Assembly: GCA_035275265.1 (NCBI GenBank)
Contig: DATENC010000017.1
Coordinates: forward strand, 6,442-70,441
Length of the DNA: 64,000 nucleotides
Direction: 5' to 3'
Origin: Burkholderiales bacterium
Lineage (GTDB): Bacteria > Pseudomonadota > Gammaproteobacteria > Burkholderiales > JACQAP01
The number at the start of each line of letters is the position of its first letter. Within the stretch, counting starts at the first letter, position 1. Below, in pieces: positions 1-12,391 of this stretch. The notes under the pieces were generated by a model that was not told the DNA's origin, did no database searches, and worked only from the letters and a program-made list of their open reading frames with translations. Made by a program: the position numbers and the translations under genes.

Positions 1-1596
1 TGCGCGCCGCAGCTCGCCAAGCAGCGACAGTTGGCTTGGCCTACCCTGCTCGAAGCTCGGGTCGTAGTACGTGTAGCCGGTGTTGTTTCTCTTGGCGACG
101 TACATTGCGATGTCGGCGCGCCGCATCAGCACGATAGTATCGTCGCCATTTTCGGGAAAGCCGGCAATTCCAATGCTGATGCCAAGATCGATTGGCTGGC
201 CCTGCATAAGGATAGGTTCTTCCAGCGCCCTTTGAATACGTTCCGCCACAATGCCTACCCGTTCGGTGCCGCTGGTCGGCAATAGAACGGCGAACTCGTC
301 GCCGCCGAAACGTGCCACGGTGTCCGAATCACGCAGAAGTTTGCGCAGCCGTCGAGCCACTTCCTGCAACACCATGTCCCCGACCGGGTGACCGAGGCCT
401 TCGTTGATGAGTTTGAAACGATCGAGGTCCATGATCAGGACCGATACCGGTCCGCCGTTGCGTTGGGCGATCTTGATGGCCTGGTCGAGGCGGTCGCTGA
501 ACATGGCGCGGTTTGGCAGGCCGGTAAGCGTGTCCTCATATGCCAGGCGCAGGATTTTCGTTTCGCGCTCGAAGATGCGCTCGAGCATGTGATTGAAACT
601 CTCGGCCAGGTCTCCGATTTCGCCCTGTAACCCTCCTTCCGCTTTCTGGGAGTAGTCGCCGTCACGGATCTTGCGAGCGACCCCTGCCAGGCGGTTGATC
701 GGGCCGGCGATGCTGCGGGCGATCAGCACGCTCCCGATAATCGACAGCACGATGCTTGCCAAGGCGAGCCACAACAGCGTATTGCGAAGCTCAACGAACG
801 GCGCCAGTCCTTCTCTCAACGGGCGTTGCAGAACGGCGGCTATTTCGCTATCGCCGAGCTCGTTCAATAACAACAGAAGGGTCTCGAAGTCTTCGCCGCC
901 TAGCGGCAATGTTGCTGTACCACGCATGCTGCCCAGGCTGCCGCCGAGTTCGCTGCGAGACACGGGAGGCAGTGTCGAAGCGTGCACGACCCACGTGCCG
1001 CGGCCGGTGCGGGACAGAAAGGAAACCTGCAGTGCCGACAGCTCCTGCAGGTCGCGTGCTACAGCGTCGTCAACAACGAGGCCCGTCGCGACCCAGGCAA
1101 TCGGAAGCGGTGCCAGGGCCGGGACTACGACGAGCTGATAGGGGCGGCCGTCGATCAGTACTATGCTGGATGCCTTACCATCGCGCTGCGCAGTTTCGAT
1201 GAGTTCCGGGAAAGGAAAGCTCGCGTCCGCTGAAATTGCATTTAGCGTATCGGCAATCATCTTCTTGTCGAGATCCGCAAGCATCACGACGTTGGCGTGA
1301 ATGCGGCGGCCATGATTGGCGAGCGCCGAAGCAATGGTCGCCCGGTCGCGGGTGGCGATTGCATCGCGAAAAGCAAAATCAGCAGCGAGCACCGAGGCAG
1401 CCTGGGCCAGCTGCTGACTGTTCTGTTCGAGCAACCGCAGGAAGACGCGCTGGCCGACGGTGAGGTCTTCCGCGATCTGGGTTTTCGCAATTCGCTCGTT
1501 GGCTGCGCTGATAAGGACAAACGCCACGCCCTGCACCACGCATAGAAGCAGTACGAAAAAAACAACGATGCGGGTTTGCAGACTTCGCAGAAGCAA
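1..1596 (-). CDS. Membrane-bound c-di-GMP enzyme: TM-periplasmic sensor-TM-HAMP-GGDEF, probably followed by EAL; runs off the left edge
   Basis: Not in the ORF track (no stop in window). Read manually from TTG at 1596: MLLRSLQTRIVVFFVLLLCVVQGV...; HAMP-like IAGPINRLAGVARKIRDGDY; YEDTLTGLPNR; RDSDTVARFGGDEF at ~290-335 with intact RxxD I-site; ends SLLGELRRA, typical GGDEF-EAL junction. Confidence 0.9.
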   Translation of the reverse strand, partial: MLLRSLQTRIVVFFVLLLCVVQGVAFVLISAANERIAKTQIAEDLTVGQRVFLRLLEQNSQQLAQAASVLAADFAFRDAIATRDRATIASALANHGRRIHANVVMLADLDKKMIADTLNAISADASFPFPELIETAQRDGKASSIVLIDGRPYQLVVVPALAPLPIAWVATGLVVDDAVARDLQELSALQVSFLSRTGRGTWVVHASTLPPVSRSELGGSLGSMRGTATLPLGGEDFETLLLLLNELGDSEIAAVLQRPLREGLAPFVELRNTLLWLALASIVLSIIGSVLIARSIAGPINRLAGVARKIRDGDYSQKAEGGLQGEIGDLAESFNHMLERIFERETKILRLAYEDTLTGLPNRAMFSDRLDQAIKIAQRNGGPVSVLIMDLDRFKLINEGLGHPVGDMVLQEVARRLRKLLRDSDTVARFGGDEFAVLLPTSGTERVGIVAERIQRALEEPILMQGQPIDLGISIGIAGFPENGDDTIVLMRRADIAMYVAKRNNTGYTYYDPSFEQGRPSQLSLLGELRRA

Positions 1597-1602
1597 GGGA
1601 AC

Positions 1603-2229
1603 CTATTCTTTGGCGGGTGCGGACTGGGGGGGCGAAAGTTCGAGCTGGAACTCGGCATTTTCCGTCATACTCTCCGTGAGCTTGATGGCGCGCGGACGGA
1701 ACTCGGACTTGGAATGGGGATGCCAGATACGCAACTCGTACTCGCCCGCCGGAAGGCCGTCGAGCCTGGCCGTGCCGGTCTTGCCGGTCTTCACAAAGTA
1801 AGGCGTATCGAAGACGTATATGTATCCGACCATCCAGTCGTGAATGTTGCAGCCGAGCACGACCACACCGGGCTTGTCGAAAATAACCGGTTTGGACGGC
1901 GTGCCCGAATAGAGTTTCAACTGGAAAACCTTGGCCGGTGAAAACGAATAGACGTGATGCCTGATGTTGTCCTTGTTTGGAAAGCTTACCGCAGCACCGA
2001 GTTGAACCGGCACCACCAGCGGCAGGAACTCCTTGTTGGCCTGATCCATAACGCCGGGCCGTGGCGCTACCGCAGTATTCGCGCCCGTCGGCAGGAGGTA
2101 GACCACGGCCTCGAAGACCGGAGCACCGCCGGAATCGGCGACCGTTGCGATCACGCTTGCGGCGGCGGCGTCGCCGCAAGCGATCGCCAGCAGCACGCAA
2201 AGGTAATGAGGCGCCGAAGTCGTCCGCAT
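1603..2229 (-). CDS. Exported cupredoxin-like protein with carboxypeptidase-regulatory-like domain (often labelled 'methylamine utilization protein')
   Basis: Signal peptide; FPNKDNIRHHVYSFS and GCNIHDWM (His, Cys-x2-His-x2-Met type-1 Cu ligand pattern). Confidence 0.8.
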   Translation of the reverse strand: MRTTSAPHYLCVLLAIACGDAAAASVIATVADSGGAPVFEAVVYLLPTGANTAVAPRPGVMDQANKEFLPLVVPVQLGAAVSFPNKDNIRHHVYSFSPAKVFQLKLYSGTPSKPVIFDKPGVVVLGCNIHDWMVGYIYVFDTPYFVKTGKTGTARLDGLPAGEYELRIWHPHSKSEFRPRAIKLTESMTENAEFQLELSPPQSAPAKE

Positions 2230-2243
2230 TTGCCGATCGTGAT

Positions 2244-2672
2244 TTACTTGGTAACGATGTCGCGTTTCATCGGTGCAAGCAGTTTGAGCAGTTCATTCTT
2301 TTCCCGCAAGCCGACTCCGTTGGCATCGAGCGCTGCAATCAGGTTCTCGACGAGGCCATTGAACTCCGCGTCGGTGATGTCCAGTCCTGCGTGCACAACT
2401 TTCATGTCATCGCCCATGTATTTGCAAGGCCCACCTGCGATCGCACAGAACTGTTCGTTGAGCATTTCCTGAGTTCGCTTGACGTTGATTTTCTGGAACG
2501 ATCGTTTGGTGCGTGGATCCACCCGGTTGCGCTGAATCAACTCGTCGATCACCCGCGCAACGACCGGGGCGCCGCCCATGCGGTCATAGAGGCTTTCCGC
2601 CGCGACGACAGAAGGCGCCGACGTGGTGGCCGCTACGAAAACCAGAAACAGGCCTTGGAAAGTCCTGTTCAT
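2244..2672 (-). CDS. Group I truncated haemoglobin with N-terminal signal peptide
   Basis: MNRTFQGLFLVFVAATTSAPSVVAAE then SLYDRMGG, GGPCKYMG, MKVVHAGLDITDAEF (proximal His); start moved to ATG at 2672. Confidence 0.88.
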   Translation of the reverse strand: MNRTFQGLFLVFVAATTSAPSVVAAESLYDRMGGAPVVARVIDELIQRNRVDPRTKRSFQKINVKRTQEMLNEQFCAIAGGPCKYMGDDMKVVHAGLDITDAEFNGLVENLIAALDANGVGLREKNELLKLLAPMKRDIVTK

Positions 2673-2703
2673 CAGTGGGTATACTTCACGTAACGAGGGG
2701 CAG

Positions 2704-3594
2704 ATGGATCGAATGTTAAGCCTAATTGCGCCGGCCGGGACACATCTCGTTGTCATGCTTCTGCTGTTTGCCGGTGTGGCGCGGGCCGACTTTTTGCCAG
2801 AACCGGGGGGCAGACTGCTTGCAACCGGCGGCGTCACCCAGATCGAGGGTGCGGCCGGTGGCGGCCTGGTGCCCTGGGCGCTGATCGCCGGTTACGGCAC
2901 TCGCGACCAGGTCGGGCTTACTGTTTACTACACCGCTGCTGATCCGACGGACTTTCGTCTGCGTGCAGCCGGGTTGTCGATCGGAATACATGACCGGTTC
3001 GAGTTGTCCGTGGCACAGCAGCGTTTCGGCTTGGGCAGCACCGTGCCTGGTGAGTTCATCAACCAGGACCTGATCGGCCTGAAAGTCAGGCTCCTCGGTG
3101 ACGCAGTTTTCGATCAGGACCGCTGGTGGCCCCAGGTGGCGGCGGGCCTCATGTACAAACGCAATGGGGACATGTCGGTGCCGCGGCTCCTTGGTGCCAA
3201 ACGCGAATCCGACACGGATTTCTACATTGCCGCGACCAAACTGTATCTCGCCGGGCTGTTCGGCCGGAACGTACTGTTGAACCTGACGCTGCGTGGAACG
3301 CGAGCCAACCAACTCGGGCTGCTTGGCTTCGGCGGGGACAAGAACGACGACTATCAGGTAATGGGGGAGGTATCGGCGGGCGTATTCCTGCACGATCGGG
3401 TCCTGCTGGGGACGGAGTATCGGCAGAAGCCGGACAATCTCAGTGCATTTCGCGAGCAAGACTTCTACGACGTTTTTGTCGCCTTCCTGCCTACGAAACG
3501 CGCGTCGATCACGGCAGCCTACGTGCAACTCGGCCAGATCGCCGACAAACAAGACCAGGACGCGCTGTACCTGTCGCTCCAACTGAGTTTTTGA
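2704..3594 (+). CDS. DUF3034-family predicted outer-membrane beta-barrel protein
   Basis: GRLLATGGVTQIEGAAGGGLVPWALIAGYG motif; alternating beta-strand pattern; C-terminal LYLSLQLSF beta-signal; start 2704 or 2713. Confidence 0.8.
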   Translation: MDRMLSLIAPAGTHLVVMLLLFAGVARADFLPEPGGRLLATGGVTQIEGAAGGGLVPWALIAGYGTRDQVGLTVYYTAADPTDFRLRAAGLSIGIHDRFELSVAQQRFGLGSTVPGEFINQDLIGLKVRLLGDAVFDQDRWWPQVAAGLMYKRNGDMSVPRLLGAKRESDTDFYIAATKLYLAGLFGRNVLLNLTLRGTRANQLGLLGFGGDKNDDYQVMGEVSAGVFLHDRVLLGTEYRQKPDNLSAFREQDFYDVFVAFLPTKRASITAAYVQLGQIADKQDQDALYLSLQLSF

Positions 3595-3642: not shown

Positions 3643-4059
3643 TCAGTTTTCAGGCTGCTGAATTGCGAAGACACCTGAAACTCGGGCGATGCGGGCGTCA
3701 CCGACGTGGAGATAGGCGTTCGCGAAGGCCAACGTCCTGCCTATTTTCTGGATGTCCACACGTGCCTCGATCCAGTCGCCGAGTTTGGCGCTGCCCGCGA
3801 AGTCGGCAGACAGGTTCGACGTAATTGCGCTGATCGGCGGTTCCCGGGTTGTGGCCATGGCGTAGCCAAGGGCAATGTCCGCGAGCGTCATGAGTACGCC
3901 GCCGTGGACTAGCGCGCGTGCGTTCATATGGTGTTCGAGTGCACGCAGACCGACCACCATTCCGGCGCCTTTGCCTTTTGAGTAGAGCGGTCCGACCCGA
4001 TCCAGAAATGGACTGCTGCGAAACAGCGGGGCGAAACCCTCGGCGGGTCTTGTGCTCAT
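3643..4059 (-). CDS. PaaI-family hotdog thioesterase
   Basis: HMNARALVHGGVLMTLAD motif; GGAGG RBS before MSTRP start. Confidence 0.85.
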   Translation of the reverse strand: MSTRPAEGFAPLFRSSPFLDRVGPLYSKGKGAGMVVGLRALEHHMNARALVHGGVLMTLADIALGYAMATTREPPISAITSNLSADFAGSAKLGDWIEARVDIQKIGRTLAFANAYLHVGDARIARVSGVFAIQQPEN

Positions 4060-4185
4060 TTGAGCCTCCATGCGTGACCGGGGAAGATCGGACCGAAGTT
4101 TGGGGACAATTGCCGGCCGAAGCAATAAAATCGGAACGGTGTCGTTCGAAGCGGCGCTACGCCTGAGAGAGGTGCCGGGCAAGCC

Positions 4186-5142
4186 ATGCTTTCCGAGTTC
4201 GATCTCATCACCAGGTATTTCAATCGTCCTACGCGGCATACGGTGCTGGGGGTAGGTGATGACGCTGCGCTGCTTGCGTTGACGTCCGGTCACGAGCTCG
4301 CCGCTTCGACCGACACCATGGTCGAAGGCGTGCACTTTTTCCCCGACGTGGAGCCCGACTCGCTTGGGCACAAGGCGCTTGCGGTCAATTTGTCCGACCT
4401 GGCGGCAATGGGAGCGACGCCGAAGTGGGCGATGCTGGCACTGACGGTACCGAAGGTCGACGAAACCTGGCTCGAAAGTTTTGCGCGAGGGTTCTTTACG
4501 CTTGCGGCAGACCACAAGGTAGACCTGATCGGCGGCGATACCGCGCGCGGACCGTGCAACATCTGCGTTCAGGTCATGGGTGAAGTCCAGAACGGTCAAG
4601 CTCTACGTCGCGACGGCGCCAGAGTCGGCGACGATGTCTGGGTTTCGGGGCATCTCGGCGATGCCGCCGCTGCGGTGGCCCACCGCAAGGGCGACCTCAG
4701 GTTGCGCGGCTCGTTACTGGCGCACTGCATTGCGCGATTGGACAGGCCGATGCCACGCGTGGCATTAGGGCGGATGTTGGTCGGCATGGCCAACAGCGCA
4801 ATCGACATCTCCGATGGACTGGTTGCCGACTTGGGACACATCTGCGAACGCTCCGGTGTCGGTGCGGCGATCGAGTTCGCGGCAATACCGTGCTCGGCGG
4901 AACTGATGCCGTTGCGAGGCCAGGCGTTGGTGACGAAGGCGATCTTGTCCGGCGGTGACGACTACGAACTGTGCTTCACCGCGGTTGCGGGACGCAAGAC
5001 TGAAATCGAGGCGTTGTCGGGTCGTTTGGGATTGGCGTTGACCCGCATTGGCAAGATCGTGGCGGGCAACGGTGTCATCGTCAAAGACCAGGCCGGAAAG
5101 CGATTGAGCGCAAAGGATGGAGGCTTCGATCACTTCCGCTGA
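4186..5142 (+). CDS. thiL: Thiamine-phosphate kinase
   Basis: MLSEFDLITRYF, GVGDDAA, AVNLSDLAAMGA, AIDISDGL, GGDDYEL. Confidence 0.96.
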   Translation: MLSEFDLITRYFNRPTRHTVLGVGDDAALLALTSGHELAASTDTMVEGVHFFPDVEPDSLGHKALAVNLSDLAAMGATPKWAMLALTVPKVDETWLESFARGFFTLAADHKVDLIGGDTARGPCNICVQVMGEVQNGQALRRDGARVGDDVWVSGHLGDAAAAVAHRKGDLRLRGSLLAHCIARLDRPMPRVALGRMLVGMANSAIDISDGLVADLGHICERSGVGAAIEFAAIPCSAELMPLRGQALVTKAILSGGDDYELCFTAVAGRKTEIEALSGRLGLALTRIGKIVAGNGVIVKDQAGKRLSAKDGGFDHFR

Positions 5143-5632: not shown

Positions 5633-6127
5633 ATGGACGCTGAGCTTTACGCACTGGCGGGCAAAGTCGGCGATGCACTGAAGGTGCGCAAGCTGATGCT
5701 GGCAACGGCGGAATCGTGCACCGGCGGCTGGATCGGTCAGGTTGTCACCATGGTGCCGGGCAGCTCGAACTGGTTCGACCGCGGTTTCGTCACTTATACC
5801 AACGACGCCAAGCGCGAGATGCTGGGCGTGCGTGCGGCGACATTGAAGAAGTTCGGAGCGGTTTCCGAGCAGACCGTGCGCGCGATGATCAAAGGCGCGC
5901 TGTCGCATAGCAAAGCTCACGTGGCGCTGGCGGTCAGCGGCATCGCCGGTCCGGACGGCGGCTCGCCCGGCAAGCCGGTTGGCACGGTATGCCTGGCTTG
6001 GGGCAAGAAAAAAGGAGCGCCACCGCACAGCGTGATGCGATATTACGCGGGAGACCGCGATGCAGTGCGCAGGCAGTCCGTTATCGACGCGCTGGAGGGT
6101 CTGCTTGCGCTGCTCGAAGCGCACTGA
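5633..6127 (+). CDS. pncC: CinA C-terminal / NMN amidohydrolase (PncC)
   Basis: [34 protein letters not shown]. Confidence 0.9.
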
Positions 6128-6224
6128 GTTACCGGCCCGGATGTCTGAAGGCCGGGAGATTTCCGCATTCGGACGGCCCAGTGCGTTATGCGATAATGGC
6201 CGCTTCAAAAAAGAGGTGAATCGC

Positions 6225-7247
<1,023 letters not shown>

Positions 7248-7256
7248 AGCGCCAAC

Positions 7257-7712
7257 TTGGCCAACGCTCCCAGTTTCAGCCTGCGTGCACGGGCACTGAA
7301 GACGCTGGGGCGGCGCGAACACTCGCGTCGGGAGTTGCAGGCCAAGCTCCAACCGTTTGCTGAAAACCCGGACGAACTCGACACACTGCTGGACGAACTG
7401 GAAAAGCGCGCCTGGCTATCGGAGGCGCGTTTCGTCGAGCAGTTGACGACCACGAGGCGGCGCAAGTTCGGTGCCGCACGCATCGTTCATGAACTGCGCG
7501 AGAAGGGGGTCTCGGACGACGCGATCTCCGCAGCGCAAGCGCAGTTGAAGGCGGGCGAAGTCGAAGCGGCGCGGGCGGTGTGGACGAAGAAGTTCGGCAA
7601 ACTGCCACGGTCGCTGCAGGAGCGTGGCAAGCAGGCGCGTTTTCTGGCCAGCCGGGGATTTTCCGCCGAAATTGTGCATCAGGTGCTCAAGGACGGCAAC
7701 GAACGGGAATGA
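7257..7712 (+). CDS. recX: Regulatory protein RecX
   Basis: LGRREHSRRELQAKL, RFLASRGF; directly after recA. Confidence 0.92.
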   Translation: MANAPSFSLRARALKTLGRREHSRRELQAKLQPFAENPDELDTLLDELEKRAWLSEARFVEQLTTTRRRKFGAARIVHELREKGVSDDAISAAQAQLKAGEVEAARAVWTKKFGKLPRSLQERGKQARFLASRGFSAEIVHQVLKDGNERE

Positions 7713-7805
7713 AGCAGCTACGGCATCCGTGAATGAAATAGAATCCAAACAGGAAATGTCCGGATTCATTCCGACGAATTTCGACATCCAACGGTTATGC
7801 GGTCC

Positions 7806-10424
7806 ATGACAAGCAACGAAATCCGCCGTCGCTTCCTCGACTATTTCCAACGTCAGGGCCACACGATCGTCCCCTCCAGCCCGCTGGTTCCTGCCAACGA
7901 TCCGACGCTGTTGTTCACGAATGCGGGCATGGTGCAGTTCAAGGACGTGTTCCTCGGCAGGGAAAAGAGGCCGTACGCACGCGCCACCACCTCGCAGCGC
8001 TGCGTTCGCGCAGGCGGCAAGCACAACGACCTGGAGAACGTCGGCTACACCGCCCGGCACCACACCTTCTTCGAGATGCTGGGCAATTTCAGCTTCGGGG
8101 ACTACTTCAAGCGCGACGCGCTGCGCTTTGCCTGGGAACTGCTGACGAAGGAATTCGGGCTCGATCCCGCCCGTCTGTGGGTCACGGTGTATCAGACCGA
8201 CGACGAGGCCTACGACCTCTGGGCCAAGGATATCAAAGTGCCGAAGGAGCGCATCGCACGCATCGGCGATGTGCCCGGCGGAAGCAAATTCCAGAGCGAC
8301 AACTTCTGGCAAATGGGTGATACCGGTCCTTGCGGTCCATGCACCGAAATTTTCTATGACCATGGTCCTGGAATTCCCGGTGGCCCGCCTGGTACGCCAG
8401 ATGCGGACGGCGACCGCTACATCGAGATCTGGAACCTGGTGTTCATGCAGTTCAATCGCGACGAATCGGGGACGATGCACCCACTTCCCAAACCCTCGGT
8501 GGATACCGGCATGGGACTGGAGCGCATCGCCGCGGTGCTGCAAGGCGTGCACAGCAACTACGAGATCGACCTGTTCCGGGATCTGATCGCCGCTGCGGCC
8601 AGGGTCACCGCTGCGAAGGATCCTACTTCCAGTTCGCTGAACGTAATCGCCGACCATATCCGCGCTTGCGCCTTTCTGATCACGGACGGCGTGATTCCTG
8701 GCAACGAAGGCCGCGGCTACGTGCTCCGCCGGATCATTCGCCGCGCTATCCGTCACGGCTACAAACTCGGCCAGACCAAGCCGTTTTTCCACAAACTCGT
8801 CGGCGACCTGTCGCTTGTCATGGGCGAGGCTTTTCCGGAATTGCCGGCCGCGCAGGAACGGGTGACCGATGTACTGAAACAGGAGGAAGAGCGCTTCGCC
8901 GAGACGCTGGAAAACGGAATGAAGGTGCTCGAGAACGCGCTGCATCGCGAGGACCGGATGTTGGATGGCGAGACGGTGTTTCAGCTTTACGACACGTTCG
9001 GCTTCCCGGTCGATCTCACAGCCGACATTGCCCGCGAACGCGGCCTGATGATCGATCACGCAGGTTTTGAGTCGGCGATGCAAAAGCAGCGTGAACGCGC
9101 CCGTGCCGCCTCCAGGTTCACAGTGCACGCGGGAATGGATTACAGCGGTCAGGGTACCGAGTTTCACGGCTACGACACGCTGAATCTGGATGGCAAGATC
9201 GTGGCGCTCTACAAGGGTGGCACGCCGGTGCAGAGGATCGAGGCCGGCGACGATGCGGTGGCGGTGCTCGACCGCACGCCGTTCTACGCCGAGTCCGGAG
9301 GGCAGGTCGGTGACCTGGGCGAGATCACTTCCAGCAATGGCAGTTTCGCGGTGAACGATACGCAGAAAATCCAGGCGGAGGTGTTCGGCCACAAGGGCGT
9401 ACTCAAGGCCGGCCGTTTCGCGGTCGGCGATGCGGTCACCGCGCAGGTCAACCCGGTGACGCGTGCGCACGCGGCATACAATCATTCGGCCACCCACCTG
9501 ATGCACGCGGCGTTGCGCAAGGTACTCGGTCCGCACGTCACGCAAAAGGGCTCGCTGGTGGACGCCAACCGCACCCGCTTCGACTTTTCCCACCACGCGC
9601 CGATGACGGCGGAGCAGATCGGCGAGGTCGAGGAACTGGTGAATCGCGAGATCCGGAGCAATCATGCGGTCGAAACCCGGCGCATGAAGTACGACGAAGC
9701 GATCAAGGCCGGCGCGATGGCGCTATTCGGGGAAAAATACGGAGACGAAGTGCGAGTTCTGCGCATGGGCGATTTTTCCACTGAATTGTGCGGCGGCACC
9801 CACGTGCGGCGCACCGGCGACATCGGGTTCTTCAAGATCGTCTCCGAATCCGGGGTCGCCGCAGGCATTCGTCGGGTGGAAGCAGTGACCGCGCAAGGTG
9901 CGCTTGCCTGGGTTAAAGAGCAGGAAGCCAGGCTCGGTGAAGCGGCGCAGGTGCTGAAAGCCCAACCGCAGGAAATCCTGCAAAAGCTTGCCCAAGTGCT
10001 CGACAACGTAAAATCGCTGGAGAAGGAACTGGCCCGGCTCAAATCCCGCCTCGCCAGTTCGCAAGGCGATGACTTGGCCGCCCAAGCGGTCGCGATCGGG
10101 AAGGTGCGGGTCCTGGCAGCGAAACTCGACGGGGCGGACGTCAGGACACTGCGAGAAGCGATGGACAAGCTCAAGGACAAACTCAAGTCGGCAGCCATCG
10201 TGCTCGGCTCGGTCGAGGGCGACAGGGTCACCCTGATTGCCGGCGTGACAGACGATCTGACCGCCACGGTCAAGGCGGGTGAACTCGTGAACTACGTGGC
10301 GCAGCAGGTCGGCGGCAAAGGCGGCGGCCGCGCGGACATGGCGCAAGCTGGTGGCACGCAACCGGCGAAACTTTCGGATGCGTTGGCAAGCGTCGCCGAT
10401 TGGGTCAAACAAAAAGTGGCGTAG
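7806..10424 (+). CDS. alaS: Alanine--tRNA ligase
   Basis: [63 protein letters not shown]. Confidence 0.99.
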
Positions 10425-10459
10425 GGCGCGGGCGGCGCCCGACCGATAAGGAGATGTTC

Positions 10460-11002
10460 ATGAGAAAAATTGCGACACTACTGATGGGCCTGGCTGCGGC
10501 GCTTTGGGCGGAAGGAGCCGCTGCGGATGCCAAGGATCTGGAGATCTTCCACAGCATCGCGATCGATGCGCCGGCCGACGAGGTGTGGGCCATGGCCGGC
10601 GACTTCGGCGGCATTCAGCGATGGTCTCCGGGAACCGAATCCAGCCGGCTTATTGTCCGTGATCGCAACGAGACCGGCGCTATCAGGCTGCTTCGCCGTC
10701 GCAGCGACGGCACCCAGGTCACGGAGAAATTGCTCGACTACGATCCGGCCAACCGTCGTATGGCCTACACTTACGTGGACGGCGTGGTAAGAGCCGCCGA
10801 CTATTTCTCCGAATTGCAGGTGAAAGATGCTGGTAACGGGCGGTCGCTCGTCGAGTGGCGCGGCCGCTTCAAGCGGTTGGCCTACTGGACCGACGATCCC
10901 CCCGCGGGCCAGGATGACAAGGCGGCGCTCGATTTTCTCAATGGCGCCTACAAGACCGGACTCGAGAATCTCAAGAAGGTCCTCGAAGCGAAGAACCGCT
11001 AG
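10460..11002 (+). CDS. Exported SRPBCC (polyketide cyclase 2) protein, MxaD-like
   Basis: Signal peptide; IAIDAPADEVWAMAGDFGGIQRW, EKLLDYD, VEWRGRFKR; AAGGAG RBS. Confidence 0.7.
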   Translation: MRKIATLLMGLAAALWAEGAAADAKDLEIFHSIAIDAPADEVWAMAGDFGGIQRWSPGTESSRLIVRDRNETGAIRLLRRRSDGTQVTEKLLDYDPANRRMAYTYVDGVVRAADYFSELQVKDAGNGRSLVEWRGRFKRLAYWTDDPPAGQDDKAALDFLNGAYKTGLENLKKVLEAKNR

Positions 11003-11014
11003 TACATCTGTGCG

Positions 11015-12391
11015 CTAGAAGGGGAGCTGGGCGGCGGGAGCGGCCTGGTGCAATACCCGCCGGAAGTCTGCCTGGATTCGTTCCAAGGCGGCCTTATCAT
11101 CGGCTTCGAAGCGCAGCACCACCACCGGGGTGGTATTGGAAGAGCGAGCCAGTCCGAAACCGTCCGCGTATTCCACTCGCAGCCCGTCAATTGTGATTAC
11201 TTCACGGGCATCCGGAAAACGCGCGGCCTTCTGCAACTTTTCGATGAGCGCGTAATTCTCGCCTTCCTTGAGCTTGATCTGCAGCTCCGGCGTGTTGACC
11301 GAGTCGGGCAGCTCGTCGAGCGTTGCGTTGATGTCGGGTACGCCGCTCAGGAATTCGAGCAGGCGCGCGCCGGCGTAGAGGCCGTCGTCGAAGCCGTACC
11401 AGCGCTCCTTGAAGAAGATGTGCCCGCTCATTTCACCGGCGAGTAGCGCGCCGGTTTCCTTCATCTTTGCTTTGATCAACGAGTGGCCGGTCTTCCACAT
11501 AGTAGCCCTGCCGCCGTGCTTGCGGATCCAGGGCGCGAGATTGCGGGTGCACTTCACGTCGAACAGGATTTCGGCACCAGGATTGCGCTTGAGCACGTCC
11601 GCGGCGAACAGCATCAGCTGTCGATCCGGGAAGATCACCTTGCCTGCCTTGGTGACTACACCGAGGCGATCGCCGTCGCCGTCGAAAGCCAGCCCGATCT
11701 CGGCGTCTCCTTCCTTGAGTGCCGCGATCAGATCTTTCAGATTCTCCGGCTGCGACGGATCAGGATGATGGTTAGGGAAGGTGCCGTCCACTTCGCAGAA
11801 AAGCTCTTCGACCTCGCAGCCGAGCTTGCCGTACAGCGAGGGCGCAAAGGCGCCGGGTATGCCATTGCCGCAGTCCACTGCGATGCGCATCCTGCGCTTC
11901 ATCTTGATATCGCCGGTCACACGCTCAAGATAGGCGAGGCCGACGTTTTCGCTGCGAATGCTTCCGGAGCCACGCTTCAAGTCTCCAGCTTCCAGCCGCC
12001 GGCGCAGTTTCTGGATGTCGTCGCCCGAAAGCGTGTCGCCCGCGAGCATCATTTTCAAACCGTTGTAATCCGGCGGGTTGTGGCTGCCGGTTACCATGAC
12101 ACCGCTACCCGTGGAGAGGTGGTGCGTCGCGAAGTAAAGAATTGGTGTGGTTACGCGGCCGATGTCGATTACGTCCGCGCCGCTTTTCTGCAGTCCGCGC
12201 GCGAGCGCCTGGGCCAGCGCCGGTCCCGAAATGCGGCCGTCGCGGCCGATGCAGACGGCGCGTTTGCCGCGTGCCTGCGCTTCCGAGCCGATCGCCTGGC
12301 CGATCGCCTCAACCGCCTCGACTGTGAGCGTACGATCGACGATGCCGCGGATGTCATAGGCTTTGAAGATCTCGGGCGCGGGGAGGTTCAT
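11015..12391 (-). CDS. algC: Phosphomannomutase/phosphoglucomutase (AlgC-like)
   Basis: FKAYDIRG, TGSHNP, FDGDGDR, GEMSGH, RSSNTTP. Confidence 0.93.
   Translation of the reverse strand: MNLPAPEIFKAYDIRGIVDRTLTVEAVEAIGQAIGSEAQARGKRAVCIGRDGRISGPALAQALARGLQKSGADVIDIGRVTTPILYFATHHLSTGSGVMVTGSHNPPDYNGLKMMLAGDTLSGDDIQKLRRRLEAGDLKRGSGSIRSENVGLAYLERVTGDIKMKRRMRIAVDCGNGIPGAFAPSLYGKLGCEVEELFCEVDGTFPNHHPDPSQPENLKDLIAALKEGDAEIGLAFDGDGDRLGVVTKAGKVIFPDRQLMLFAADVLKRNPGAEILFDVKCTRNLAPWIRKHGGRATMWKTGHSLIKAKMKETGALLAGEMSGHIFFKERWYGFDDGLYAGARLLEFLSGVPDINATLDELPDSVNTPELQIKLKEGENYALIEKLQKAARFPDAREVITIDGLRVEYADGFGLARSSNTTPVVVLRFEADDKAALERIQADFRRVLHQAAPAAQLPF

Follow-up and report, generated by a model that had tools for sequence, protein, structure and literature searches.

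The YfiBNR system (TpbB; Pseudomonas aeruginosa, E. coli) spans three layers of the envelope: a component in the outer membrane, a soluble regulator in the periplasm and, in the inner membrane, a HAMP enzyme of cyclic di-GMP (c-di-GMP) metabolism whose periplasmic domain is the point of control. H-NOX and NosP are stand-alone haem proteins encoded beside a c-di-GMP enzyme or a kinase, with interchangeable outputs. In NspS-MbaA and LuxP-LuxQ, a periplasmic partner encoded immediately upstream binds the ligand for a PAS/Cache-type receptor, MbaA also being a GGDEF-EAL protein. Here we describe a locus from the genome of a Burkholderiales bacterium that codes for a predicted outer-membrane barrel of family DUF3034, an exported truncated globin, a cupredoxin and a receptor of dCache_3-HAMP-GGDEF-EAL type. 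The locus occupies the left end of a 64,000-nucleotide stretch, hereafter the window (assembly GCA_035275265.1, contig DATENC010000017.1; G000:C17:6442-70441), and the 6.4 kb upstream were also fetched. The module is made up of two pairs, barrel plus globin and cupredoxin plus receptor, rather than a linear chain of four parts. We see an even chance that the four genes form an envelope sensory module, in which a blue-copper co-sensor would report redox state and a globin anchored at the outer membrane would add an O2 or redox input.

Linkage of the four genes across Pseudomonadota

A sequence-only reading of this stretch had suggested that the four families co-occur across Proteobacteria, and analysis of gene neighbourhoods bore this out. 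A pattern scan of species-representative genomes detected at least 578 DUF3034 loci, of which the 80 nearest to the query were inspected. The four genes have the window's arrangement at 65 of these; many of the other 15 loci lie at contig ends and some are true pair-only or trio loci. A neutral sample of 401 evenly drawn Pseudomonadota genomes was then used, avoiding the bias from nearest relatives. DUF3034 is found in 42 of these genomes (31 of 234 genera), nearly always in single copy and every match being strong. Leaving aside the window's own copy, which is likewise paired with a globin, DUF3034 has a truncated-globin gene adjacent or fused to it at 41 of 41 copies. Within 8 kb of these 41 copies, a cupredoxin is present in 35 cases, the sensor in 30 and all four genes together in 29. 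Outside the window, the genes most often run in the order cupredoxin, sensor, DUF3034 and globin on one strand. Gene order and strand were thus reshuffled with adjacency kept, indicating that the linkage survived rearrangement.

The cupredoxin profile, run on the same 401 genomes with a threshold of E <= 1e-30, identified 54 genomes. They include 41 of the 42 DUF3034 genomes versus 13 of the 359 others (Fisher p = 2e-43, a value that ignores phylogeny). Chance adjacency was rejected on the basis of the 41 neighbourhoods and of this contingency table. No fifth conserved gene emerged from clustering the neighbours of 121 loci, which yielded only antisense shadow open reading frames (ORFs) and sporadic LysR genes.

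The division into two pairs is apparent from the distribution of the genes. Where the cupredoxin lies away from DUF3034, it adjoins its own dCache_3-GGDEF-EAL gene elsewhere in the genome, and the cupredoxin-receptor pair is also present in DUF3034-negative genomes. Of the 42 genomes with barrel and globin, all but one also encode a cupredoxin. In the cupredoxin tree, copies from genomes free of barrel and globin are interspersed (9 changes for 13 rows), suggesting that the barrel-globin pair was gained or lost repeatedly.

Some loci show variations on these pairs. At L106 (G055:C4:161798-180389) the DUF3034-globin tandem is duplicated (7881-9373 and 9684-11126), with one cupredoxin gene after the duplicate and a second cupredoxin-sensor pair 5 kb upstream. 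The window's genome itself contains a paralogous system without a globin (L143, G000:C11:39912-52328; genes at 5821-6477, 6481-8181 and 8178-9428). There, a cupredoxin/CarboxypepD_reg protein (HNVFS ... CEIHKHM) is followed, after 3 nt, by a periplasmic-sensor-HAMP-class III cyclase. The third gene, overlapping that of the cyclase, encodes an exported protein of 416 amino acids (aa) that ends in ...VIVRF and has no Pfam match; hhalign found no homology between this protein and DUF3034. The combination of a cupredoxin, a HAMP receptor and an outer-membrane-type protein may be a recurring design.

The barrel-globin pair

The N-terminal signal sequences of globin, cupredoxin and barrel were assigned by eye, without a predictor; those of the first two agree with what had been noticed earlier. 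The globin signal peptide, of Sec type, covers residues 1-25, with cleavage placed between MNRTFQGLFLVFVAATTSAPSVVAA and ES. The globin sequence makes the protein a group-N truncated haemoglobin of the TrHbN-2 type. The best sequence match in the PDB, among 24 TrHbN matches, is Shewanella benthica HbN (SbHbN; 8tls/7tt9/8ugz, E 6e-17). The globin has Phe59 at position CD1, Ile46 (not Tyr) at B10, Leu71 (not Gln) at E11, Cys76 at E16 and a second cysteine, Cys83. Among 77 orthologues, at least 95% have the Gly-Gly hinge and the proximal His, and at least 80% have Phe CD1; the GG, the His of M...H and the GGP motif are conserved. These orthologues have Ile, Leu, Val or Met at B10 and Leu at E11, positions to which Ile46 and Leu71 of the window globin were assigned by alignment to HbN and SbHbN. 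Cys76 is nearly invariant and Cys83 occurs in about 80% of them. The conserved proximal His and pocket residues suggest that the protein binds haem b. The TrHbN-2 subgroup is defined by hydrophobic B10 and E11 residues instead of the Tyr and Gln of subgroup 1; its only studied member does not bind O2 reversibly and reacts with peroxides (PMC11904497). Hydrophobic residues at both positions place the window globin in this clade, whose members are expected to have a low affinity for O2.

In about half of the orthologous lineages, the globin carries a lipobox in which the +2 residue is never Asp; the window globin has the Sec-type peptide instead. In class-level relatives (L097, L103, L107, L118, L120, L121 and L122; f51/f53/f67), the globin core is preceded by a conserved N-terminal extension (pattern …PGEE-VDPY--S-ANAGA-P…) that is absent from the window globin. 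The literature searched for exported truncated haemoglobins yielded only cytochrome-globin fusions of cable bacteria and general genomics papers.

The properties of the distal pocket bear on the role of nitric oxide (NO), which the sequence-only reading had named along with O2 as the possible signal. The periplasmic globin could bind NO, or act as an NO dioxygenase re-reduced by the cupredoxin, with the receptor adjusting c-di-GMP in response; such a system would be comparable to those of H-NOX and NosP, which bring about the dispersal of biofilms. Group-N truncated globins do include NO dioxygenases, as established for M. tuberculosis HbN, and the control of GGDEF-EAL enzymes by haem-bound NO is well documented. 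In the PDB, the cupredoxin is closest in sequence to Nmar_1307 (5fc9), which reportedly oxidises NO. However, the pocket lacks the TyrB10 and GlnE11 that support NO dioxygenase chemistry in HbN. Furthermore, NirK is present in 3 and cd1 NirS in 7 of the 42 module genomes, against 61 and 54 of the 401 genomes overall, and the window's own genome has neither. This absence of enrichment makes NO from the cell's own denitrification improbable as a general cue. Exogenous NO sensing remains a rival, although we regard the NO explanation as a whole as unlikely. The only match to the NirK model in the window's genome (G000:C26:585507-586367, 196 bits versus a cut-off of 296, in a 540-aa frame) is probably another multicopper protein.

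The partner of the globin matches PF11231 over the entire model (positions 1-255 of 255; 352 bits versus a 25-bit cut-off) and is encoded by a single-copy gene in the window's genome. We know of no function for DUF3034, and the literature searched contains incidental mentions only. The protein ends in ...LQLSF, with the C-terminal Phe that had been taken for a beta-signal. An AlphaFold2 (AF2) model gives 12 strands with a predicted local distance difference test score (pLDDT) of 81 overall and about 90 in the barrel. Foldseek aligned the model, with probability 1.0, to 12- and 14-stranded outer-membrane barrels, among them FapF, the EstA/NalP autotransporter barrels, the COG4313 channel, NanC and OmpG. 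The likeness is generic (TM-score 0.4-0.5, about 10% identity). These results identify the DUF3034 protein, at the level of the model, as an outer-membrane beta-barrel. A sequence search of the PDB with the DUF3034 profile produced no real match. Conservation along the strands alternates between 0.7-0.9 at lumen-facing residues and about 0.5 at lipid-facing ones, a pattern suggestive of an occupied or plugged lumen. The Gly-rich motif that precedes the barrel is disordered in the AF2 model (pLDDT 46-68), with no helix predicted.

That barrel and globin are physically linked is suggested by natural fusions. In G253 (L104), a single ORF starts with a signal peptide and the globin, followed by a 16-residue Gly/Pro linker and by the DUF3034 N-terminal motif and barrel; no second signal peptide is present. 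A database search returned about 80 clusters of 415-450-aa fusions containing PF01152 and PF11231. They come from Duganella, Pseudoduganella, Janthinobacterium and Rugamonas (Oxalobacteraceae), down to 56% identity, plus a few more distant carriers. Their recurrence, together with the lipoprotein globins, suggests that the globin works at the barrel, on or near its N-terminal motif.

The same data could point to surface display. DUF3034 would then be a 12-stranded translocator comparable to autotransporters, FapF or RcsF-OMP, and would expose or thread the globin (fused, lipidated or free) to the cell surface for sensing of the exterior. FapF, EstA and NalP barrels are indeed the top Foldseek matches, and the order of the fusion (signal peptide, passenger-like domain, linker, 12-stranded barrel) is what display would entail. 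Conservation in the barrel protein is highest at the lumen-facing residues and in the N-terminal segment, and many orthologous globins are lipoproteins. Yet a haem-b globin would have to cross the membrane unfolded and find its haem outside the cell, while the partner cupredoxin and the dCache_3 domain are periplasmic. Moreover, the structural matches denote no particular class of 12-stranded barrel, and the window globin is neither lipid-anchored nor fused. Display is, in our estimate, of low probability. Type Va autotransporters have an N-terminal passenger joined to a 12-stranded barrel, with a helical linker in the pore. The Oxalobacteraceae fusions show this domain order; the window barrel has no passenger, and no sequence match to autotransporter families was obtained.

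The cupredoxin-receptor pair and a possible signalling route

The 208-aa protein has an N-terminal signal sequence (...LLAIACGDAAAA, cleaved before S). Searched against Pfam, it gave no cupredoxin match, only a C-terminal CarboxypepD_reg match below the cut-off. Its assignment as a cupredoxin comes from fold and ligand conservation. The AF2 model (pLDDT 93.6) shows a cupredoxin domain, at about residues 60-140, inserted in a CarboxypepD_reg-like beta-sandwich. Foldseek matched it to amicyanin, pseudoazurin and plastocyanin (E 1e-5 to 1e-4; target-normalised TM-score 0.55-0.78), and further to the C-terminal cupredoxin of NirK and to Nmar_1307. The four putative copper ligands, His91, Cys127, His130 and Met133, are invariant in 66 orthologues and align with ligand positions of 5fc9 (phmmer E 3e-4). 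Three of them fall within the motif GCNIHDWM (GCNIHDxM across the family), with the C-x2-H-x2-M spacing of amicyanin. The protein is therefore best described as a predicted exported type-1 (blue) copper protein. Its orthologues are named "methylamine utilization protein" or "plastocyanin" in databases. A lipoprotein assignment based on LLAIAC was rejected, the closest orthologue having a Trp at that place.

A separate cupredoxin subclade (family f2, E about 1e-38 to the profile) occurs at L110, L112, L114, L117 and L130. At least some of its mechanical ORFs reach greater lengths (L110 and L112, about 340-440 aa with provisional starts). The gene adjoins DUF3034-globin without a receptor gene at L110, L112, L114 and L117, and L130 belongs to a genome without DUF3034. 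G301, the one f2-type genome examined, has a regular cupredoxin-receptor pair elsewhere.

The cupredoxin gene lies immediately upstream of the receptor gene, which is cut by the window's edge. The window holds the N-terminal 532 residues of a 792-aa inner-membrane protein whose complete gene is G000:C17:5659-8037 (locus L003). The sensor-HAMP-GGDEF layout read earlier holds for the portion inside the window, including the intact GGDEF and RxxD motifs; Pfam names the sensor domain dCache_3, and the full-length protein adds an EAL domain with all of its EAL, EITE and DDFGTG motifs. The receptor is a GGDEF-EAL protein, not a GGDEF protein only. EAL motifs are retained in about 80 of some 88 GGDEF-EAL orthologues, and GGDEF is intact in only 47 of these. 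Motif retention suggests that the conserved output is the EAL phosphodiesterase, which hydrolyses c-di-GMP; the window protein keeps both sets of motifs. In two Hydrogenophilales/Thiobacillus metagenome-assembled genomes (MAGs), a second sensor gene of the same type lies just downstream of DUF3034 (L052, 8789-10498; L055, 8816-10537), with GGDEF intact and no EAL. These genomes may pair a cyclase and a phosphodiesterase on one input.

The dCache_3-HAMP input partnered with a cupredoxin is connected to GGDEF-EAL in most genomes, to a class III nucleotidyl cyclase at L012, L059, L063 and L140, and to a Ser/Thr kinase at L133. A hybrid histidine kinase is a probable, less certain, further output at L141 and L142. 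There, the cupredoxin gene lies 0.4-1 kb off, Pfam finds no dCache_3 and a HAMP domain only in L141, and the receptors match only our custom sensor profile (E 2e-18 and 6e-9). A single input with many outputs is what typically characterises a sensory module. The periplasmic domain has conserved motifs but not a single conserved Cys, His or Met. Interchangeable outputs and the lack of such residues fit a sensory role.

A receptor devoid of metal ligands could also sense copper through its partner, the apo and copper-loaded forms of the cupredoxin binding dCache_3 differently. In such a case c-di-GMP would track periplasmic copper, with the globin-barrel pair as a secondary modulator. Consistent with this possibility, 13 genomes have the cupredoxin-sensor pair in the absence of the globin-barrel pair, and the copper site is the most conserved feature of the cupredoxin. 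Nonetheless, a full His-Cys-His-Met site with amicyanin spacing is the signature of tight-binding electron-transfer proteins and would make a poor graded sensor, and no copper-resistance or homeostasis gene recurs beside the module in the 121 clustered loci. Copper sensing would also leave unexplained the haem protein tied to the system in 41 of the 42 DUF3034-positive genomes. We find this explanation quite unlikely.

Still more improbable is that the module is not a sensor at all, with globin, cupredoxin and barrel forming a periplasmic redox enzyme or electron chain (for example a peroxide scavenger) and the c-di-GMP gene being merely co-regulated. Receptor-free trios or pairs at L070, L089, L093, L110, L112, L114 and L117 can be read along these lines, as can the peroxide reactivity of the studied TrHbN-2 protein (PMC11904497). 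However, all five genomes examined in which the receptor is not adjacent (G253, G285, G321, G275 and G301) have a cupredoxin-receptor pair at another location. The cupredoxin gene is also paired with genes for receptors that differ in their type of output, and no enzyme or electron donor recurs nearby.

The sensory-module reading can be outlined as follows. The cupredoxin-receptor pair would be the core of the module and the barrel-globin pair an addition to it. The receptor, having no redox or metal site of its own, would sense by protein contact which state the cupredoxin is in, most likely Cu(I) or Cu(II), and pass this information via HAMP to the cytoplasmic output, here GGDEF-EAL. The TrHbN-2 globin would work where the DUF3034 barrel faces the periplasm, docked onto the N-terminal motif that probably plugs this barrel. 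The globin haem, with its hydrophobic distal pocket, would react with O2 or another small oxidant or reductant and exchange electrons with the cupredoxin. As a result, c-di-GMP turnover would follow O2 or redox conditions in the envelope. The protein contacts, the loading of haem and copper, the transfer of electrons in either direction and the nature of the signal are all putative. The sequence-only reading had envisaged a signalling relay along the four proteins: the sensory role agrees with the swapped outputs and with the lack of conserved Cys, His or Met in the periplasmic domain, a physical link between barrel and globin agrees with their recurrent fusion, and the linear chain gives way to two pairs.

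Several points weigh against this outline. Type-1 copper potentials are usually well above those of globin haems, so that ferric haem would be poorly reduced by Cu(I) and electrons may flow in either direction. Without a twin-arginine motif, the globin is exported by the Sec route and must acquire haem b in the periplasm. The structure models, of cupredoxin and DUF3034, are monomers and the contacts mere proposals, and low pLDDT leaves the plug or docking role of the N-terminal motif a guess. The domain order of the fusions fits surface display too, and the co-occurrence statistic disregards shared ancestry. Finally, the source organism is an uncultured rhizosphere MAG, and no RNA runs with the locus were found, only metagenomic DNA runs, the best of which is a rhizosphere sample.

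A bolder version, which we hold to be doubtful, makes the globin-barrel unit a trans-outer-membrane redox antenna. Electrons or a small ligand would be exchanged with the exterior through or at the barrel, thereby setting the oxidation state of the cupredoxin that c-di-GMP, cAMP/cGMP or kinase receptors read. In the window's genome the antenna would consist of separate proteins; in other genomes it would be anchored by a lipid, and in Oxalobacteraceae its two parts are fused, similarly to the Cyc2 cytochrome-porin.

About one in ten of the sampled Pseudomonadota genomes carries the module. Some of the fetched loci belong to named organisms, such as methylotrophs, Thiobacillus, Herbaspirillum, Duganella and Janthinobacterium. 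No study of the four-gene module was found in the literature searched, in line with the earlier statement that the set has no established function. If the sensory reading is correct, the module constitutes a new input route to c-di-GMP, hence to biofilm and motility, that senses periplasmic rather than cytoplasmic O2 or redox state. It would provide the first physiological role for the TrHbN-2 clade and for exported globins, and a case of a blue-copper electron carrier serving as co-sensor of a receptor. If the antenna version holds, a cupredoxin would for the first time be seen to serve as a signalling ligand, and a globin to work at the outer membrane. The swappable outputs and the natural globin-barrel fusion offer ready experimental handles.

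Layout of the locus and relation to described systems

The positions given earlier for all four genes were confirmed. Three genes are co-oriented, with gaps, read from the sequence, of 14 nt (globin/cupredoxin) and 6 nt (cupredoxin/sensor), and the barrel gene is divergent, 31 nt (2673-2703) separating the start codons of globin and barrel. A sigma-70-like match (TGGAAA-18-TATACT, 2656-2685) and a Shine-Dalgarno-like GAGGGG both precede the barrel gene. The promoter match is not above chance (2 found versus 1.2 expected), and promoter and terminator counts at the locus do not exceed the shuffled-sequence level. An Rfam scan of the locus returned zero matches, which argues against a riboswitch.

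Features of the four-gene locus (window positions unless stated otherwise; aa, residues of the respective protein)
Feature	Position	Strand	Remarks
Sensor (receptor/enzyme) gene	1-1596	-	start TTG; open at the window's left edge
TM1 (transmembrane segment), sensor	about aa 9-31	-	
dCache_3 periplasmic domain, sensor	aa 40-200; 997-1479	-	Pfam, E 2e-13
TM2, sensor	about aa 273-295	-	
HAMP, sensor	aa 291-341; 574-726	-	Pfam
GGDEF domain, sensor	aa 352-505	-	PF00990, E about 3e-48 to 9e-48
RxxD I-site (RDSD), sensor	aa 422-425; 322-333	-	five residues upstream of GGDEF
GGDEF motif, sensor	aa 431-435; 292-306	-	intact
EAL domain, sensor	aa 528-761; G000:C17:5659-6441, outside the window	-	PF00563, E 2e-73
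Cupredoxin gene	1603-2229	-	208 aa
Predicted Cu ligand His91	1957-1959	-	from conservation
Predicted Cu ligand Cys127	1849-1851	-	from conservation
Predicted Cu ligand His130	1840-1842	-	from conservation
Predicted Cu ligand Met133	1831-1833	-	from conservation
Globin gene	2244-2672	-	142 aa; PF01152, E 2e-13
Proximal His94 (F8), globin	2391-2393	-	
Divergent control region	2656-2703	+	sigma-70-like match and Shine-Dalgarno-like site 5' of the barrel gene
DUF3034 gene	2704-3594	+	296 aa; PF11231, E 2.5e-105
Signal peptide, DUF3034	aa 1-28	+	by eye; cleavage after ...LLLFAGVARA, before D
Gly-rich N-terminal motif RLLATGGVTQIEGAAGGGLVPWALIAGYGTRDQ, DUF3034	aa 37-69	+	mean conservation 0.86
Predicted 12-stranded beta-barrel, DUF3034	aa 70-296	+	AF2

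The locus is embedded in housekeeping genes, nrdR, rib genes, nusB and panB on one flank and a hotdog thioesterase, thiL, pgpA, cinA, recA, recX and alaS on the other, and GC content is uniform over the region. The mechanical ORF at 3643-4599 (minus strand, 318 aa) overlaps thiL. Only its C-terminal part of about 164 aa (3643-4137) matches the hotdog-fold thioesterase family (4HBT, E 2e-13), suggesting that the real thioesterase gene is probably the short one.

Compared with YfiBNR, the locus has no homologous component outside HAMP-GGDEF. For this portion the best NCBIfam match is DgcN/YfiN, at 190 bits versus a 325-bit cut-off and covering HAMP-GGDEF only. YfiB is an OmpA/Pal-like lipoprotein, not a barrel, YfiR is cofactor-free and YfiN lacks EAL and dCache_3; the window system, in contrast, has two putative metal cofactors and two periplasmic proteins. 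Membership in YfiBNR was rejected given the sub-threshold score and the globin, cupredoxin and DUF3034 neighbours. H-NOX and NosP are cytoplasmic, have another fold and act directly on their enzyme, whereas here an exported truncated globin is tied to an outer-membrane barrel and a cupredoxin would stand between globin and receptor. NspS and LuxP are solute-binding proteins for small molecules; the corresponding partner in the window is a predicted type-1 copper electron-transfer protein.

The individual proteins also have described relatives. SbHbN shares with the window globin the hydrophobic B10 and E11, the Cys at E16 and the proximal His, and the alignment with its 116-aa crystallised chain begins at residue 26 of the window globin, past the signal peptide. 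The window globin differs in being exported, in having Phe rather than Tyr at CD1 and in its second Cys (C-x6-C). The TrHbN-2 study is silent on export, membrane location and gene neighbours (PMC11904497).

Amicyanin and pseudoazurin have the same cupredoxin fold and His-Cys-His-Met ligands. The window protein, a possible relative of MauL, differs from the amicyanin/MauL type by the insertion of its cupredoxin domain in a CarboxypepD_reg-like sandwich and by being encoded with a signalling receptor instead of a dehydrogenase or reductase. Cyc2 and rusticyanin, from Fe(II) oxidation in Acidithiobacillus, provide an analogy only: a haem domain N-terminal to an outer-membrane barrel, plus a periplasmic cupredoxin. 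Cyc2 has a covalent c-type haem and a 16-stranded barrel and feeds a respiratory chain, unlike the window system with its probable b-type globin, predicted 12-stranded barrel and signalling output. The module shares the logic of YfiBNR, NspS-MbaA, LuxPQ and H-NOX, but no accessory component with any of them.

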